Assembly: GCF_013177435.1 (NCBI RefSeq)
Contig: NZ_CP053627.1
Span: forward strand, 1-32,000
Source: Xylella taiwanensis
Lineage (GTDB): Bacteria > Pseudomonadota > Gammaproteobacteria > Xanthomonadales > Xanthomonadaceae
Direction: 5' to 3'
DNA length: 32,000 nucleotides
Under the pieces are notes generated by a model. The model did no database searches and was not told the DNA's origin. It saw only the letters and a program-made list of their open reading frames with translations. Both the position numbers and the translations under genes were made by a program. How positions within the stretch are numbered: the stretch's first letter is position 1; the number at the start of each line of letters is the position of its first letter. Shown here piece by piece: positions 13,479-26,638 of this stretch.

Positions 13479-13526
13479 ATAGCCTTTGCAGCGCATGGCC
13501 TATCCAATCCCGCAGGATATCACCAC

Positions 13527-13556
13527 AAAAACGCCACTTGATGTGGCGTTTTTTTT
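13527..13556. terminator. intrinsic terminator after exbD2, possibly bidirectional
   Basis: AAAAACGCCAC-TTGAT-GTGGCGTTTTTTTT. A perfect GC-rich stem flanked by an A-run upstream and a T-run downstream, about 50 nt after the exbD2 stop. Confidence 0.8.
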
Positions 13557-22043: not shown

Positions 22044-22120
<77 letters not shown>

Positions 22121-22976: not shown

Positions 22977-24080
22977 TCATCTGGTTACGTTGGTTTCGGG
23001 TGTTTTGTGAGCTGTAGCGGGCCTTGGTAGGGTCTGCCTGATGCGCACTGCCCGAGCGAGCTGCTCCAGCATTGCCACTGAGGTATCCCAGTCGATGCAA
23101 CCATCGGTAATACTCTGCCCATAGGTGAGTGTGCTGCCAGGTACCAAGTCTTGCCGACCACCAACAATGTGGCTTTCGATCATCACACCGACGATGCGGC
23201 GTTCACCGGCTTCGAGCTGCTCAACGATGTTCTCAATGACCTTGGGTTGATTGTTTGGATTTTTGCCACTATTAGCATGGCTCGCGTCAACCATCAGACG
23301 TACTGGTAGCTTGGATTTAAGCAATGTTTGGCTGGCCGCTTCGACACTGTTCGCGTCGTAGTTTGGGACCTTGCCTCCACGCAGGATCACGTGGCAATCG
23401 GGATTACCCTGAGTGGCGACGACTGCGGCGATACCCGTCTTTGTCACTGACAGGAAATGGTGTGGATGCGAAGCGGCCTTGATCGCGTCAGCAGCAATCT
23501 TCACATCACCGCTGGTACTGTTTTTAAAGCCAATTGGGCACGACAGACCTGAAGCCATCTCACGGTGTATCTGGCTCTCGGTGGTGCGTGCACCGATGGC
23601 GCCCCAAGCCACTAAATCAGCCAGGTACTGTGGCGAAATTGTGTCTAGAAATTCCACGCCAGCCGGTAAACCCAGATGATTGATGTCGCGCAGCAGGTTG
23701 CGCGCGATGTACAGACCTTTATTGATCTGGAAGCTGCCATCCAGATCCGGGTCGTTGACCAAGCCCTTCCAACCAATGGTGGTGCGCGGTTTCTGAAAGT
23801 AAACCCGCATGATGATCTCCAGTGCGTCGCCATAGGTCTCGCGCAATGGGCGTAGACGCTGCGCGTAATCAATCGCTGCAATTGGGTCATGGATTGAGCA
23901 TGGGCCGATTACCACTGCTAAACGGTCGTTGTGGCCGTGCAGGATATCGTGCAGTGCGGTGCGTGAGGCTGCTACAGTCAGTGACGCCTGTTCATCGCAG
24001 GAGAGTTGCAAGAGGAGCTGTGCAGGAGGTGCCAGTGGTTCAATCTTGCGGATGCGGAGGTCATCGGTAAATGGTGGCAT
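22977..24080 (-). CDS. aroG: class I (AroF/G/H-type) 3-deoxy-D-arabino-heptulosonate-7-phosphate synthase
   Basis: 367 aa from ATG 24080 (MPPFTDDLRIRKIEPL). Blocks VVIGPCSIHD, RVYFQKPRTTIGWKGLVNDP, WGAIGARTTESQIHREMASGLSCPIGFKN, ILRGG and DASHANS. The isozyme or feedback specificity cannot be assigned from sequence. The GTG 24197 start of the ORF track would read through the upstream terminator and was rejected. Confidence 0.95.
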   Translation of the reverse strand: MPPFTDDLRIRKIEPLAPPAQLLLQLSCDEQASLTVAASRTALHDILHGHNDRLAVVIGPCSIHDPIAAIDYAQRLRPLRETYGDALEIIMRVYFQKPRTTIGWKGLVNDPDLDGSFQINKGLYIARNLLRDINHLGLPAGVEFLDTISPQYLADLVAWGAIGARTTESQIHREMASGLSCPIGFKNSTSGDVKIAADAIKAASHPHHFLSVTKTGIAAVVATQGNPDCHVILRGGKVPNYDANSVEAASQTLLKSKLPVRLMVDASHANSGKNPNNQPKVIENIVEQLEAGERRIVGVMIESHIVGGRQDLVPGSTLTYGQSITDGCIDWDTSVAMLEQLARAVRIRQTLPRPATAHKTPETNVTR

Positions 24081-24130
24081 GGGATGTAATCTCAGAAAAA
24101 AATTTAGGCATAGGTCAAGTGAGGGTGGGC

Positions 24131-24164
24131 AATAAAAAAGCCGCCAAAATATGTTGGCGGCTTT
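24131..24164 (-). terminator. intrinsic terminator between the leader ORF and the DAHP synthase gene (attenuator terminator)
   Basis: The minus strand reads AAAGCCGCCAA-CATATT-TTGGCGGCTTT followed by TTTATT, so with the TTT of the 3' arm the U-run reads TTTTTTATT. The 11-bp stem is perfect. It ends 51 nt upstream of the DAHP synthase ATG. Confidence 0.8.
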
Positions 24165-24216
24165 CAAGGATGCGAAGAAGTTTCCTTCAGATAGCACGCA
24201 ATCCTTCCTCCGCCAA
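24154..24216 (-). promoter_or_regulatory. candidate antiterminator helix competing with the terminator
   Basis: The minus-strand segment TTGGCGGAGGAAGGATTGCG (24197-24216, inside the leader ORF) pairs with CGCATCCTTGAAAGCCGCCAA (24154-24174). The second segment is the 5' arm of the terminator plus 10 upstream nt. Pairing is 7+5+4 bp with one internal loop and one bulged U. Confidence 0.6.
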
Positions 24217-24315
24217 TGGCATTGGAAATGCGTAGTACCAAAAATAAAAGCTGTCGCGATTAAAGTTCATCGCTTCATTAATAGCACGCTCATACGACAT
24301 GCACCACTGTTTCAT
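24187..24315 (-). CDS. candidate attenuator leader peptide rich in Phe/Tyr/Trp codons
   Basis: MKQWCMSYERAINEAMNFNRDSFYFWYYAFPMPLAEEGLRAI (42 aa). A 27-aa version starts from the internal ATG 24270. Codons 24226-24249 encode F Y F W Y Y A F. The stop lies 22 nt before the terminator stem. The start codon and SD are uncertain. Confidence 0.55.
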   Translation of the reverse strand: MKQWCMSYERAINEAMNFNRDSFYFWYYAFPMPLAEEGLRAI

Positions 24316-25744
24316 TCGTAACTCTATTTCAGGTGACAAATGTACAAGACAACTCGAATTACAACGTTTGGGGCGTATCACTTAGGCGGTCAACCAGTGC
24401 CCACGATCAGGCACATGAACACAATACAGTCAAGTGATACAGCGGCACCGACAGTTTAGTGTGTCCTTTATATGAAACGTTTTGAAATTGCATTGGCAGA
24501 ATATTGTTGAATTGCGATCAGCACAAAGTGTTCTCTACTTGGCGCATGACTCTCCTTGGAAGAGCAGCCTAGTTTTGATCGTATCCCAACCGTAGAGATT
24601 CGATTTCATCAATCGGCAGTAACGACTCTGTCATATGTGGCGAAGGATGAGGTGTGGTCAGCTGGTGTTGATGTTGTCTCGCATTACATTCAAATGAGCT
24701 TCACTAACGACGCATGCTTTCATATCAATTTATGTGGATGCCTAGCTAAAGCGAATGCGCAAATCGGCTTGTTGAGCAATAGGTGAAGATTCCGACAAGG
24801 CCCATATTGCTTGGTCCGTTCGATCGAAGCTCAGCCACAGAGCGCTGATCCTTGATGTGTTTGCACATGGGACCCACAGAGTGAGTATCTCGATGGCTGG
24901 GACGTAGTGAATGTGTGCATGGTTGTGCAGTATCCCGTGTGTGTGGCGTTGCTATGAGAGATTTTTGTCTTGAGCACGGGCTTCAAAGTATTGGTGAAGA
25001 TCAATGGGTCGATGCGAACTAAACGTCGTTCACTGAAGACCGTCCTCAATGTCTCCATAAACCAAGAACATCACACACTTGAGCAGCGTTTACTGACCAG
25101 CGGGTGTTGTAATGCGTGCTGCAAATTCTCGGCAGAGCACGTGATACCCAGCTGTGCATGAATTTTCATCACCATAACATCATGCTGCACATCGGCTAAC
25201 AACATCAGCTTCTGATGCAACATGTTTATATGGAGCACATGCATTGTTTGAGGTGAGAACGGCATCAGTGAAGTCTGTGCAGCAACGGGAGGTGATATAT
25301 GCCGGATTGTCACAATGCTTGTGTCATTCACACTATACTCTGTTACGCCGTACATACGGTGGCCGCAATATTTCTTGGATACTCATCGTATGAGTAGGCG
25401 AAACGTCGATCTCTCAATGATCGAAGGTACCTTGCAAAAAGGTCGAAGAGAATAGACGAAGCCGTTTTAATTGCTTTCTGTAAGTAGATGAAAAACGCTG
25501 GTCACAGGCTGTGGTCTCATTCTGGTAAGGGCTAATATATTTTCCTAAATATATTTCTGCTCATAGCGATCCGAGAAAATGCATTGAGCTAGCGTGTCTA
25601 TCATTCGAGCCAGAATTGGTTGGCGCGACGCGCCCAAGAGACTCAACATGAGGGTCCGTATACAGCATGAGTCAGCGTGTGCCGCAGCATATCCAGCGTT
25701 GATCTGAAACTTGGATGAGGTATTGGTCATTAGGTTCTGTTGAC

Positions 25745-25761
25745 ATTCGCGTAACGCGAAT
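25745..25761. repeat. 17-nt palindrome ATTCGCGT-A-ACGCGAAT with an extra ACGCGAA half-site
   Basis: 8+1+8 palindrome checked base by base. The half-site ACGCGAA recurs at 25762-25768. A TTGACA hexamer overlaps its left edge (25740-25745). Confidence 0.9.
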
Positions 25762-26062
25762 ACGCGAAGATAGTACTTACAGTGCTGAGCGATAAGGGTG
25801 AAGCAGAACGTAGGGAGCATGCAGGGCAATGCAGGCCGTCTGGATTTAAAGGCAGTTGATCACCACGATTTCTTCAAGCCCTTGCGATGGACGGTACGCA
25901 CCGGCTTCTGTGGCATCGCTTGACGGTGGATATTGAATCCTGGGCACGTTGTATAAATACGTTTTTTCCGATCCTGGCGATTACGCATAAAATTTTAGAG
26001 ATTTATATCGCATCATAACCTCGCCTATAATTGTGATATAAATCACCTTTCGTCCGCGGTGT

Positions 26063-26638
26063 ATGTATCGAAAGATGAGCCAATGGAAGTCGACCCCACC
26101 TGCCCCTGCGTATGGTTTCACGGTGGTCGAGTTAATGGTAACAATCGCCATCCTGGCAATTCTTGCAGGCCTTGCTTATCCGAGCTTTATTAATCTGATT
26201 AATAGCGAGCGCTTGACGAGTAGTGCTAACGAGTTGGTTGCTTCTTTACAACTGGCCAGGACAGAAGCAATCCGGCTTGGTTCTTCGGTTGCCGTATGCC
26301 GCAGTGACAATGGTCGTGATTGTGTTGCCGGCACCCCTTGGCGACGCTGGGTGACCGTGGCCAATGGGAGCACAGAGATCCTAAGGGTAAACAATGCCAT
26401 CACCAACGTTATTGTTCAGAGTAGCCCCACAATCGCCCGTTTAAACGACCAAATTGTGTTCAACCCGGATGGGCTGGCGCGCGACTCTGACGGCGCATTG
26501 CTCACGGCGCAATTGTCGATATGTATGGCCAATGCCAGCCTAGCCAACAATCTTCGTTTTGTCAGCATTAATGGCGGCAGCCGAATTCGCGTCTCGCCCG
26601 GATCTACACCCCAATGTTCTCAGCCTAGAGACGAATAA
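26063..26638 (+). CDS. fimT: type IV pilus minor pilin, FimT/GspH family
   Basis: Prepilin-type N-terminus YG-FTVVELMVTIAILAILAGLAYPSF. GspH/FimT-like body. First gene of a pilV-pilW-pilX-pilY1 cluster. The start could instead be ATG 26075. Confidence 0.8.
   Translation: MYRKMSQWKSTPPAPAYGFTVVELMVTIAILAILAGLAYPSFINLINSERLTSSANELVASLQLARTEAIRLGSSVAVCRSDNGRDCVAGTPWRRWVTVANGSTEILRVNNAITNVIVQSSPTIARLNDQIVFNPDGLARDSDGALLTAQLSICMANASLANNLRFVSINGGSRIRVSPGSTPQCSQPRDE

Follow-up and report, generated by a model that had tools for sequence, protein, structure and literature searches.

The DAHP synthase gene of Xylella taiwanensis is most probably controlled by a ribosome-mediated transcription attenuator of the trp/pheA type, a reading to which we give a probability of about 85% and which draws on the elements present, their alternative folds and energies, and their conservation, spacing and covariation among relatives. 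Within the 32,000 nucleotides of DNA analysed here (the window), the minus strand ahead of the gene holds a short ORF, a cluster of codons for the end products of the pathway, an intrinsic terminator and an antiterminator that excludes it, which together are the defining parts of attenuators of the trp, pheA and his type; occlusion of the antiterminator by a ribosome at the stop codon is only partial. By its sequence, the Xylella leader would be a well-supported new case of a known form of regulation.

DAHP synthase catalyses the committed step towards Phe, Tyr and Trp, as well as many plant-pathogen metabolites, and in the enteric model its genes are under the TyrR and TrpR repressors. The Xylella enzyme scores 525 bits against the AroG equivalog model, below its cut-off of 568, and 490 bits against the AroH subfamily model, above its cut-off of 463; it is 79% identical to the Xanthomonas orthologue, starting from residue 1. 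A longer ORF of 406 aa from GTG 24197 was rejected, as homology to the orthologues begins at residue 1 of the ATG 24080 form. Upstream of this ATG, a sequence-only reading of the same DNA had placed a minus-strand ORF closing with the TGA at 24187-24189, and our re-check of the sequence agrees, its 3' end reading ...NFNRDSFYFWYYAFPMPLAEEGLRAI with the TGA at 24189-24187. The features discussed below are collected in Table 1.

Table 1. Features of the DAHP synthase leader region in the X. taiwanensis window, in the order of transcription.
Feature	Position	Strand	Description
Conserved box GTTACGAATGAAAC	24309..24322	minus	39-52 nt upstream of the leader ATG; includes ATG 24315
Putative extended -10 element TGCTATTAAT	24277..24286	minus	TATTAA hexamer, ending 7 nt ahead of the leader ATG
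Leader ORF MNFNRDSFYFWYYAFPMPLAEEGLRAI	24187..24270	minus	27 codons plus TGA; start, frame and stop kept in 72 aligned relatives
Regulatory codon run F Y F W Y Y A F	24226..24249	minus	3 Phe, 3 Tyr, 1 Trp; 7 of 8 codons aromatic
Region 1 ACGCAUUUCC	24224..24233	minus	Forms the 1:2 hairpin with the 3' part of region 2
Region 2 UUGGCGGAGGAAGGAUUGCGU	24196..24216	minus	Last leader codons; antiterminator 5' strand
Small hairpin GAAG-GAAA-CUUC	24177..24188	minus	Overlaps the stop codon, inside the antiterminator loop
Region 3 CGCAUCCUUGAAAGCCGCCAA	24154..24174	minus	Antiterminator 3' strand plus terminator 5' arm
Intrinsic terminator	24131..24165	minus	12-bp stem, 6-nt loop, U-tract UUUUUUAUU; -18.3 kcal/mol
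Class I DAHP synthase (aroG/aroH-like)	22977..24080	minus	367 aa, ATG 24080; TIGR00034, 518 bits

The codon run was also part of the sequence-only reading, and its count of seven Phe, Tyr or Trp codons among the eight at 24226-24249 is confirmed on the minus strand. Indeed, the run is the sole 8-codon window with at least six aromatic residues in all six frames of the 32 kb. In the related loci (1.04 Mb, both strands), such runs occur 72 times on the strand of the DAHP synthase gene and within 400 nt 5' of it, and twice elsewhere; the family norm is six to seven aromatic codons per run, and the Phe codons are 78% UUU in family leaders against 14% in the adjacent genes. Indels in the coding part of the leader come in multiples of three across the 72 aligned relatives. 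Considering that the X. taiwanensis leader carries a single Trp codon, that this codon is missing from 39 of 75 relatives, and that it is placed less favourably than the Tyr and Phe codons 3' of it, the leader probably senses mainly Phe and Tyr, and a response to Trp is doubtful. A 42-aa version of the ORF is annotated merely as a 'hypothetical protein' (WP_267903164.1).

Two starts had been proposed for this ORF, ATG 24315 and the internal ATG 24270. The latter is the conserved start; the former falls inside the conserved box, and in relatives its position is out of frame, soon runs into a stop, or is not an ATG. Longer versions of the ORF, from GTG 24381 or ATG 24315, were likewise rejected, their upstream part not being conserved as coding in relatives. 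The window has a single copy of the box (pattern GTTRCNRMTGAAAC), and so, at the corresponding position, do 15 Xanthomonadaceae loci and the Xylella loci, with no conservation in the sequence 5' of it; the box is probably a DNA-level element, putatively promoter-proximal. A role as a -35 element was discarded because, counted on the sequence, 25 nt separate it from the -10, which is too distant. Closer to the start, the leader ATG of 55 of 75 family members is preceded by a -10-like hexamer whose end lies 6-9 nt away, with an upstream TGn in 48 of these; of 3176 random ATGs taken from these loci, 108 show such an arrangement. We infer a promoter role for the X. taiwanensis element at this place. 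A sigma-70 scanner that requires both hexamers found no site here. An SD-like motif stands upstream of the leader ORF in just 8 of the 75 members, and no Shine-Dalgarno sequence precedes the ORF in X. taiwanensis. With a conserved extended -10 only 7 nt upstream of ATG 24270, the leader ORF is probably leaderless, its transcription start being read solely from the position of the -10.

Downstream of the ORF, the terminator hairpin GAAAGCCGCCAA / CATATT / UUGGCGGCUUUU occupies 24165-24136 and its U-tract ends at 24131, so that the stem, loop and U-run named in the sequence-only reading are all recovered, now with 12 bp. A simple terminator scanner called no site at 24131..24165, a miss that we judge to be an artefact of the scanner's rules, as the longest stem seems to absorb four U residues of the tail. 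The last leader codons do pair with the 5' arm of this terminator, as had been claimed: 24216-24196 and 24174-24154 form 6+6+3 bp around a small internal hairpin, at -24.5 kcal/mol against -18.3 kcal/mol for the terminator, and the antiterminator energy is matched by 0.1% of 1000 shuffles. The small hairpin has an equivalent, CUGAAG...CUUCAG, that can be read by eye in Xanthomonas and Stenotrophomonas sequences; elsewhere it is poorly conserved (36% paired). A further structure, the 1:2 hairpin, adds to the two helices described before and reaches -14.0 to -14.9 kcal/mol in the window, whilst the fold of the 250-nt leader as a whole has a z of -3.5. When a ribosome is set on any aromatic codon before the 3' arm of the terminator has been transcribed, the antiterminator is the fold of lowest energy; once the 3' arm is present, the terminator fold is more stable, even with a stalled ribosome, and the switch must therefore be kinetic, as in trp.

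The geometry of the leader suits such a switch. From the last aromatic codon to GGCGG there are 11 nt in 57 of 75 members, a gap in keeping with where a stalled ribosome would have its 3' edge. In the sequence of events that we propose, transcription would start at ATG 24270 or 1-2 nt from it, and the 27-codon leader would be translated leaderless. Were Phe- and Tyr-tRNA (and perhaps Trp-tRNA) scarce, the ribosome would be expected to stall in the FYFWYYAF run, covering region 1 and halting just before UUGGCGG; region 2 could then pair with region 3 as it emerges, the terminator 5' arm would be sequestered, and RNA polymerase would read through into the DAHP synthase gene. With plentiful charged tRNAs, the ribosome would instead reach the UGA and either block most of region 2 or let it refold on region 1, leaving region 3 to pair with region 4 and transcription to terminate at the U-tract, around 24131-24139. 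In this scheme the transcription start, the stalling and the dependence on amino-acid supply are inferred. The sequence-only reading had a ribosome at the stop codon covering the antiterminator strand, and a footprint of -15 to +12 bears this out for the 3' two-thirds of that strand but not for UUGGCGG; in silico, a 7-bp helix is still able to form across the ribosome. The contrast between on and off must then come from losing the remaining 9-12 bp, from steric effects and from a local hairpin.

Far from being lost in relatives, the leader ORF and both helices are widely kept: the element precedes the orthologous gene in 76 of the 78 loci with upstream sequence, drawn from Xanthomonadales, Burkholderiales and Alphaproteobacteria, across three proteobacterial classes. 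The alignment and the covariance model R1 rest on 72 sequences, and counts per member on 75. A model built without L049 and L052 recovers both at 73-74 bits; L057 and L076 give no match to the covariance model. R1 scores the window at 106.5 bits at 24134-24270, a value that holds by construction since the window is in the seed alignment, and detects no second copy in it. From ATG to U-tract, all members measure 128-148 nt.

Aligned across these loci, the upstream regions keep the aromatic run, the GGCGG:CCGCC core and the terminator, with both compensatory and three-way changes. The blocks GGCGG / CCGCC / GGCGG are invariant at 14 of 15 positions in the 72 sequences, the remaining one, C59, being kept in at least 90%; in the GGCGG of region 2, four of five positions are invariant and the fifth is found in at least 90% of sequences. 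Third codon positions G57 and G60 never change, even though codon 19 can specify L, T, K, Q, M, P or A: the nucleotides are kept where the amino acid is not, which indicates selection at the level of the RNA. The terminator is paired in 94.9% of cells (72 sequences) and shows a compensatory change from G-C to A-U that divides 49 sequences from the 23 that carry it. A three-way change at one position links regions 2, 3 and 4, with U/A/U in Xylella and C/G/C in 36 relatives. The GGCGG:CCGCC core pairs never vary and so carry no covariation signal, and the RNAalifold consensus consists of the terminator and a 2-bp stem, nothing else. On the cross-class MAFFT alignment, antiterminator helices 2 and 3 are paired in 43% and 36%, reflecting either lineage-specific helices or a misaligned variable spacer. 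As the spacer is too variable for a cross-class alignment, we replaced the latter by folding each sequence separately: in 72 of 75 members, compared with about 20% of shuffles, the whole CCGCC core finds an upstream partner when a ribosome is stalled within the run and the 3' arm is left out, and this partner is typically the in-ORF GGCGG, 21-25 nt before the stop. The 1:2 hairpin is paired in 66.9% of cells overall (helix 2, 81.8%; helix 3, 73.2%; outer helix, 44.5%).

No Rfam family reaches threshold at the leader. A permissive Rfam 15 search of 23000-25500 returned just a sub-threshold hit to Phe_leader (RF01859; 22.2 bits, E = 1.2, gathering 55), in which the terminator hairpin alone aligns and 75 internal model positions are skipped; no match to a Trp leader family was reported, and in gathering mode the whole window yielded tRNA-Met only. 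Full-text literature searches found no description of the proteobacterial element and zero matches to peptide strings such as FYFWYY; a prior prediction may still exist in Vitreschak et al. 2004, RegPrecise or the Merino attenuator database. The E. coli pheA leader (pheL, RF01859) shares the short ORF with product codons, the mutually exclusive terminator and antiterminator hairpins and a similar terminator stem (AAAGCCnCC...GGnGGCUUUUUU). It differs in controlling chorismate mutase/prephenate dehydratase rather than DAHP synthase and in having Phe codons only; the Xylella leader mixes F, Y and W, has no Shine-Dalgarno sequence, and its putative promoter abuts the ATG. With E. coli trpL, the Xylella leader shares the four-region 1:2 / 2:3 / 3:4 logic, including a predicted 1:2 hairpin, and an antiterminator that is less stable than the terminator state and must act kinetically. 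Unlike in trpL, region 2 lies wholly inside the ORF with the stop codon 3' of it, so that a terminating ribosome covers part of region 2, and the regulatory codons are of three kinds.

Aromatic leaders ahead of DAHP synthase genes have appeared elsewhere; the next two were compared by description only. In Corynebacterium glutamicum, the aroR leader (Phe-Tyr-Phe) attenuates aroF, and stalling under Phe limitation enhances read-through, according to Neshat et al. 2014 as summarised in PMC11802643; Tyr supply was without effect in C. glutamicum, which cautions that a codon type may be present without being sensed. As described there, aroR too is an aromatic-codon leader upstream of an operon with a DAHP synthase gene, in another phylum and with a run of three codons against the six to seven of the Xylella-type family. 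In Acholeplasma, the uORFC-13-1 motif that precedes aroF (Brewer et al. 2021, PMC8632094) is a uORF predicted by computation and containing Phe codons; it likewise has a terminator beside it and a DAHP synthase gene downstream. It is confined to Acholeplasma and environmental sequences (24 representatives), has an RBS, and codes for at least one Phe through a U-run, as opposed to a mixed aromatic run. A further parallel is the trpL of Sinorhizobium meliloti, a proteobacterial attenuator whose leader ORF stands at the 5' end of the transcript as a leaderless small mRNA (PMC10117765), an arrangement that the position of the -10 suggests for Xylella. That leader regulates trpE(G) and encodes a 14-aa peptide with Trp codons, and trans functions have been demonstrated for both its RNA, rnTrpL, and its peptide.

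Taken together, these comparisons allow a broader reading, which we put forward tentatively and rate at somewhat under even odds: an uncatalogued, widespread RNA family could act as a leaderless attenuator for Phe and Tyr, with or without Trp, and, in Xanthomonadales, many Burkholderiales and some Alphaproteobacteria, as the principal control that transcription exerts on entry into the shikimate pathway. It would be marked by the three fixed blocks GGCGG / CCGCC / GGCGG and by a Trp codon that tracks the subtype of DAHP synthase, with the option that a ~135-nt RNA or the peptide acts in trans like rnTrpL/peTrpL. If this were so, the composition of a leader could read out both the allosteric and the regulatory specificity of the enzyme. 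These sequences predict that, unlike in the enteric model, the gene of Xylella, Xanthomonas, Stenotrophomonas, Bordetella, Achromobacter and others is gated by a leader that reads two to three tRNA chargings at once, which would close a gap in the regulons reconstructed for these groups. The leader also suggests itself as a candidate new family for Rfam, offers a compact natural sensor for engineering the production of aromatic compounds, and may serve as a test bed for a mixed-codon, apparently leaderless attenuator that integrates several amino-acid signals. Mechanistically it follows the textbook, so that the surprise for a specialist is moderate.

Could the short transcript do something else, beside attenuation in cis or instead of it? 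A role in trans, as a dual-function sRNA or small protein of the rnTrpL/peTrpL kind, is the alternative that fares best, and we consider it unlikely. The terminated RNA would be discrete, leaderless and about 135 nt long, the C-terminal part of the peptide keeps the motif P-x-P-L-A-E-E-G-x-R in different classes, and S. meliloti offers a precedent (PMC10117765, PMC6614838). Against this, RNA pairing explains the conserved residues, as the invariant third-position G under changing amino acids attests; the element is found nowhere but directly ahead of DAHP synthase; and six leader peptides, taken from six clades, had no match at E <= 10 in either NCBIfam 20.0 or Pfam-A. A function in trans would, in any case, leave the role in cis in place.

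The same terminator and antiterminator might also be flipped by a protein or a small-molecule ligand, in the manner of TRAP, a riboswitch or a T-box, with the ORF being incidental. Alternative folds and an ORF without a Shine-Dalgarno sequence would fit such a switch, which we nonetheless hold to be very improbable: the conserved ATG, frame and stop, the multiple-of-three indels, the aromatic run with its 11-nt spacing and the skew towards UUU all speak against it, and the RNAalifold consensus contains, beyond the hairpins, no conserved structure resembling a ligand pocket, just as Rfam contains no match. Fainter still is the prospect of a TnaC-like arrest peptide that senses free aromatic amino acids in the ribosome tunnel rather than hungry codons. 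An aromatic-rich peptide with a conserved P-x-P followed by acidic residues could suit it, but the logic would be inverted, with abundance leading to stalling and so to read-through of a biosynthetic gene; moreover, the order and identity of the aromatic residues (F, Y, W) are free to vary between clades while the RNA blocks are invariant, and the footprint-matched spacing suits stalling at hungry codons. Finally, a chance ORF beside an ordinary terminator or insulator hairpin, for which the silence of the simple promoter and terminator scanners might be cited, is effectively refuted by the comparative data, given an element kept at 76 of 78 loci in three classes, aromatic runs at 72 to 2 in favour of the upstream position, a fold z of -3.5, and a terminator that would have no other obvious purpose between a promoter and the only gene downstream of it.

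A short ORF rich in Phe, Tyr and Trp codons, followed by a terminator/antiterminator switch, had been proposed to precede the DAHP synthase gene of Xylella taiwanensis, and this interpretation is supported, with amendments to the start of the leader, the coverage by the stop-codon ribosome, the 1:2 hairpin and the role of Trp. From the sequence features and their conservation, we put the probability that the leader works as a ribosome-mediated attenuator at roughly 85%. The end of the ORF, its stop codon and its aromatic run read as claimed, and the run is not an artefact of composition: it is the sole stretch with at least six aromatic residues per eight codons in the six frames of the whole 32-kb window, and the fold of the 250-nt leader beats 200 of 200 shuffles (z = -3.5). 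Exact matches to the DAHP synthase are found on chromosomes CP087686.1 and CP011800.1, where "hypothetical protein" is the sole annotation of the leader ORF, in its 42-aa form.

Features of the aromatic leader and of the gene behind it
Feature	Position	Strand	Details
Class I DAHP synthase gene	22977-24080, ATG 24080	minus	TIGR00034, 518 bits
U-tract	end 24131	minus	UUUUUUAUU, directly 3' of the terminator hairpin
Terminator hairpin (regions 3:4)	24165-24136	minus	GAAAGCCGCCAA-CAUAUU-UUGGCGGCUUUU
Antiterminator (regions 2:3)	24216-24196 with 24174-24154	minus	UUGGCGGAGGAAGGAUUGCGU with CGCAUCCUUGAAAGCCGCCAA
Leader ORF, 3' end	TGA 24189-24187	minus	...NFNRDSFYFWYYAFPMPLAEEGLRAI, read from sequence
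Local hairpin	24190-24216	minus	UUCCAAUGCC/GGCGGAGGAA
Region 1	24233-24224	minus	ACGCAUUUCC, within the aromatic run; 1:2 hairpin partner GGAAGGAUUGCGU
Aromatic codon run	24249-24226	minus	3 Phe, 3 Tyr, 1 Trp codons
Putative extended -10	24286-24277	minus	TGCTATTAAT; hexamer ends 7 nt before ATG 24270
Conserved box	24322-24309	minus	GTTACGAATGAAAC, pattern GTTRCnRMTGAAAC; 39-52 nt upstream of the leader ATG; contains ATG 24315

Both alternative helices are predicted, albeit with other pairs than first counted: the terminator, with its U-tract, has a stem of 12 bp rather than 11, and the antiterminator consists of 6+6+3 bp rather than 7+5+4, enclosing a small hairpin across the stop codon. Folding gives -18.3 kcal/mol for the terminator against -24.5 kcal/mol for the antiterminator, the latter equalled by 0.1% of 1000 shuffles. 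The two are mutually exclusive, since the antiterminator uses the 5' arm of the terminator. The sequence-only reading lacked the 1:2 hairpin (-14.0 to -14.9 kcal/mol). When stalling was simulated with the A site on each aromatic codon, masking 13 nt from the codon's first base and folding the RNA as made before the terminator 3' arm, the antiterminator formed at every aromatic codon (-25 to -28 kcal/mol); with the 3' arm added, the terminator state was more stable than the antiterminator, so the switch must be kinetic, as it likewise is in the trp operon. A consensus terminator scanner found no site in 23800-25200 despite the 12-bp hairpin and U-tract, seemingly because the longest stem absorbs four U residues, so that the tail window is short of T.

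A DAHP synthase protein query against a single genome from each species gave 80 loci (63-79% identity), drawn from Xanthomonadales (Xanthomonas, Stenotrophomonas, Pseudoxanthomonas, Rhodanobacter, Dyella), Burkholderiales (Bordetella, Achromobacter, Pusillimonas, Duganella, Rugamonas and others) and Alphaproteobacteria (Inquilinus, Kaistia, Devosia and one Bradyrhizobium MAG). The leader ORF and terminator recur in 76 of the 78 loci having upstream sequence, over three classes, as an ORF of 21-30 codons, 4-9 of them aromatic (usually 6-7), and then the terminator; the unit lies ~80-150 nt from the gene in nearly all loci, and ATG to U-tract spans 128-148 nt in every member. Two loci initially missed by the pattern (L049, L052) scored 73-74 bits with a covariance model built without them, whereas a covariance model search of the two loci without the element (L057, L076) returned nothing. 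Within 1.04 Mb of related loci, 72 aromatic runs lie upstream of DAHP synthase versus 2 elsewhere. The Oxalobacteraceae leaders (L037-L039, L045, L050-L055, L058-L072) are a structurally distinct sub-type of the family: their C-terminus reads ...SNSNPKAVE before the stop codon, which falls 6-10 nt past GGCGG, the last aromatic codon lies 17 nt rather than 11 nt from GGCGG, and the promoter, TTGCCA-17-TATAGT, is followed by a 5' UTR of 25-40 nt.

Across the 72-sequence alignment, GGCGG in the leader and CCGCC and GGCGG in the terminator arms are invariant except at leader position C59, which at least 90% of sequences still share. Among the invariant leader bases are the third bases of codons 19 and 20, and the amino acid at codon 19 varies among relatives (L, T, K, Q, M, P or A); we take this as evidence that selection acts on the leader RNA, not on the peptide. 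Compensatory changes were found in both helices. Pairing in the terminator reaches 94.9%; next to its core, a pair changes from G-C to A-U in 23 sequences, in 16 of which the leader base that would lengthen the antiterminator is also U, and at one position of regions 2/3/4 Xylella has U/A/U against C/G/C in 36 relatives, a three-way change predicted to keep both helices. The invariant core, having no variation, yields no covariation signal. Folded one by one, 72 of 75 members have the CCGCC core fully paired upstream, versus ~20% of shuffled controls, the usual partner being the GGCGG within the ORF, 21-25 nt ahead of the stop codon; mean energies over the family are -21.8 (antiterminator) and -18.7 kcal/mol (terminator). 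Antiterminator helices 2 and 3 are paired in 43% and 36% of the cross-class alignment, and the outer 1:2 helix in 44.5% across the family; these weakly paired helices are specific to certain lineages or else badly aligned.

In 57 of 75 members GGCGG follows the last aromatic codon at a distance of exactly 11 nt, and in a further 14 the distance is 17 nt; a spacing of 11 nt is what one would expect were the edge of a stalled ribosome required to fall just before region 2. A ribosome at the stop codon had been thought to cover the antiterminator strand, and with a footprint of -15 to +12 it does cover part of region 2, but it leaves UUGGCGG (24216-24210) exposed behind it, able in silico to pair with CCGCCAA across the ribosome in a 7-bp helix. 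Discrimination must therefore rest on the 9-12 bp lost, on sterics and on the local hairpin that forms behind the stop-codon ribosome, which may be what sequesters UUGGCGG. Codon choice also differs: in the leaders (L001-L080 and the window) 78% of Phe codons are UUU and 47% of Tyr codons UAU, versus 14% and 26% in the adjacent DAHP synthase genes, a bias, opposite to genomic usage, that is consistent with selection on decoding.

Of the two starts originally offered, ATG 24270 is the conserved one; ATG 24315 falls within the box, which is conserved as DNA and not as coding sequence, relatives having other frames, stops after it, or CTG there. Each of 15 Xanthomonadaceae loci, and Xylella too, has a single copy of the box, which the beta and alpha clades among the collected loci lack. 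Counted on the sequence, it lies 25 nt from the -10, too far for a -35 element; a regulator may bind there. In 55 of 75 members (48 with TGn) the leader ATG is preceded by a -10-like hexamer whose end is 6-9 nt away, compared with 3.4% of random ATGs, and an SD-like motif is seen in just 8 of 75 leaders; the exceptions to the ATG-adjacent -10 are mostly Oxalobacteraceae, with a 5' UTR of 25-40 nt. We infer little or no 5' UTR ahead of the leader ORF, a leaderless arrangement for which Sinorhizobium trpL provides a proteobacterial precedent (PMC10117765). Relevant to leaderless initiation are three start-codon variants: Pseudoxanthomonas locus L008 (2812-2959) has ACG at the leader ATG position and an in-frame ATG 9 nt upstream, in the -10 region, whilst L011 (2819-2955) and L019 (2809-2947) have GTG.

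All three codon types occur in the run, but a response to Trp is doubtful. Leaders have on average 3.8 codons for Phe, 2.4 for Tyr and 0.5 for Trp, 39 of 75 lack a Trp codon, and a ribosome stalled at the Trp codon would, counted from coordinates, cover part of region 1 only; moreover, in Corynebacterium aroR (Phe-Tyr-Phe) the effect comes from Phe limitation only (PMC11802643). Given these sparse Trp codons, their position and the aroR precedent, we expect the leader to sense mainly Phe and Tyr, with weak Trp sensing possible. Leader and enzyme were compared for the window and ten relatives (L001, L012, L020, L022, L029, L042, L044, L053, L065, L077) on the NCBIfam AroG equivalog (cut-off 568 bits): enzymes behind Trp-less leaders (Bordetella, Achromobacter, L065) score 572-581 bits, with L042 borderline at 567.6, and those behind one-Trp leaders 525-546 bits, under the cut-off, the exception being L053 (Trp codon, 579 bits). 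The Trp codon thus appears mostly to accompany a sub-cut-off enzyme, in a phylogenetically confounded sample of n=11 with one exception.

The Xylella leader probably shares its mechanism with the classical attenuators. It falls outside Rfam Phe_leader, scoring 22 bits where the threshold is 55 and aligning through the terminator alone; no other Rfam 15 family reached threshold, nor did any NCBIfam or Pfam leader-peptide family for the leader peptides. A DAHP synthase gene has been shown to be under leader-peptide control in Corynebacterium glutamicum (PMC11802643) and predicted to be so in Acholeplasma (PMC8632094), and an E. coli aroF attenuator was hypothesised in 1980. Full-text literature searches, peptide strings included, did not turn up the proteobacterial leader family, and an earlier computational prediction is possible. 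The leader is apparently an uncatalogued addition to a well-known kind of regulator, notable for spanning three classes, for the mixture of its regulatory codons and for a start that is probably leaderless.

Elsewhere in the window, R1, the covariance model of the aromatic leader built from 72 loci, gave a partial match (17.6 bits, terminator portion only) at 13488-13554 on the plus strand, probably an intrinsic terminator that resembles the leader's in its stem but is unrelated to it. Between the leader promoter and a divergent pilin-like gene (26063-26638, plus strand; GspH and N_methyl domains), the stretch 24390-26060 runs for ~1.7 kb without an ORF of at least 120 aa, at a GC content of 0.44-0.48 versus 0.52-0.55 in flanking genes; its two 94-aa ORFs have no Pfam match. 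A tRNA-Met (CAT) gene (22044-22120, minus strand) lies on the same strand as DAHP synthase, ~860 nt downstream of its stop codon.
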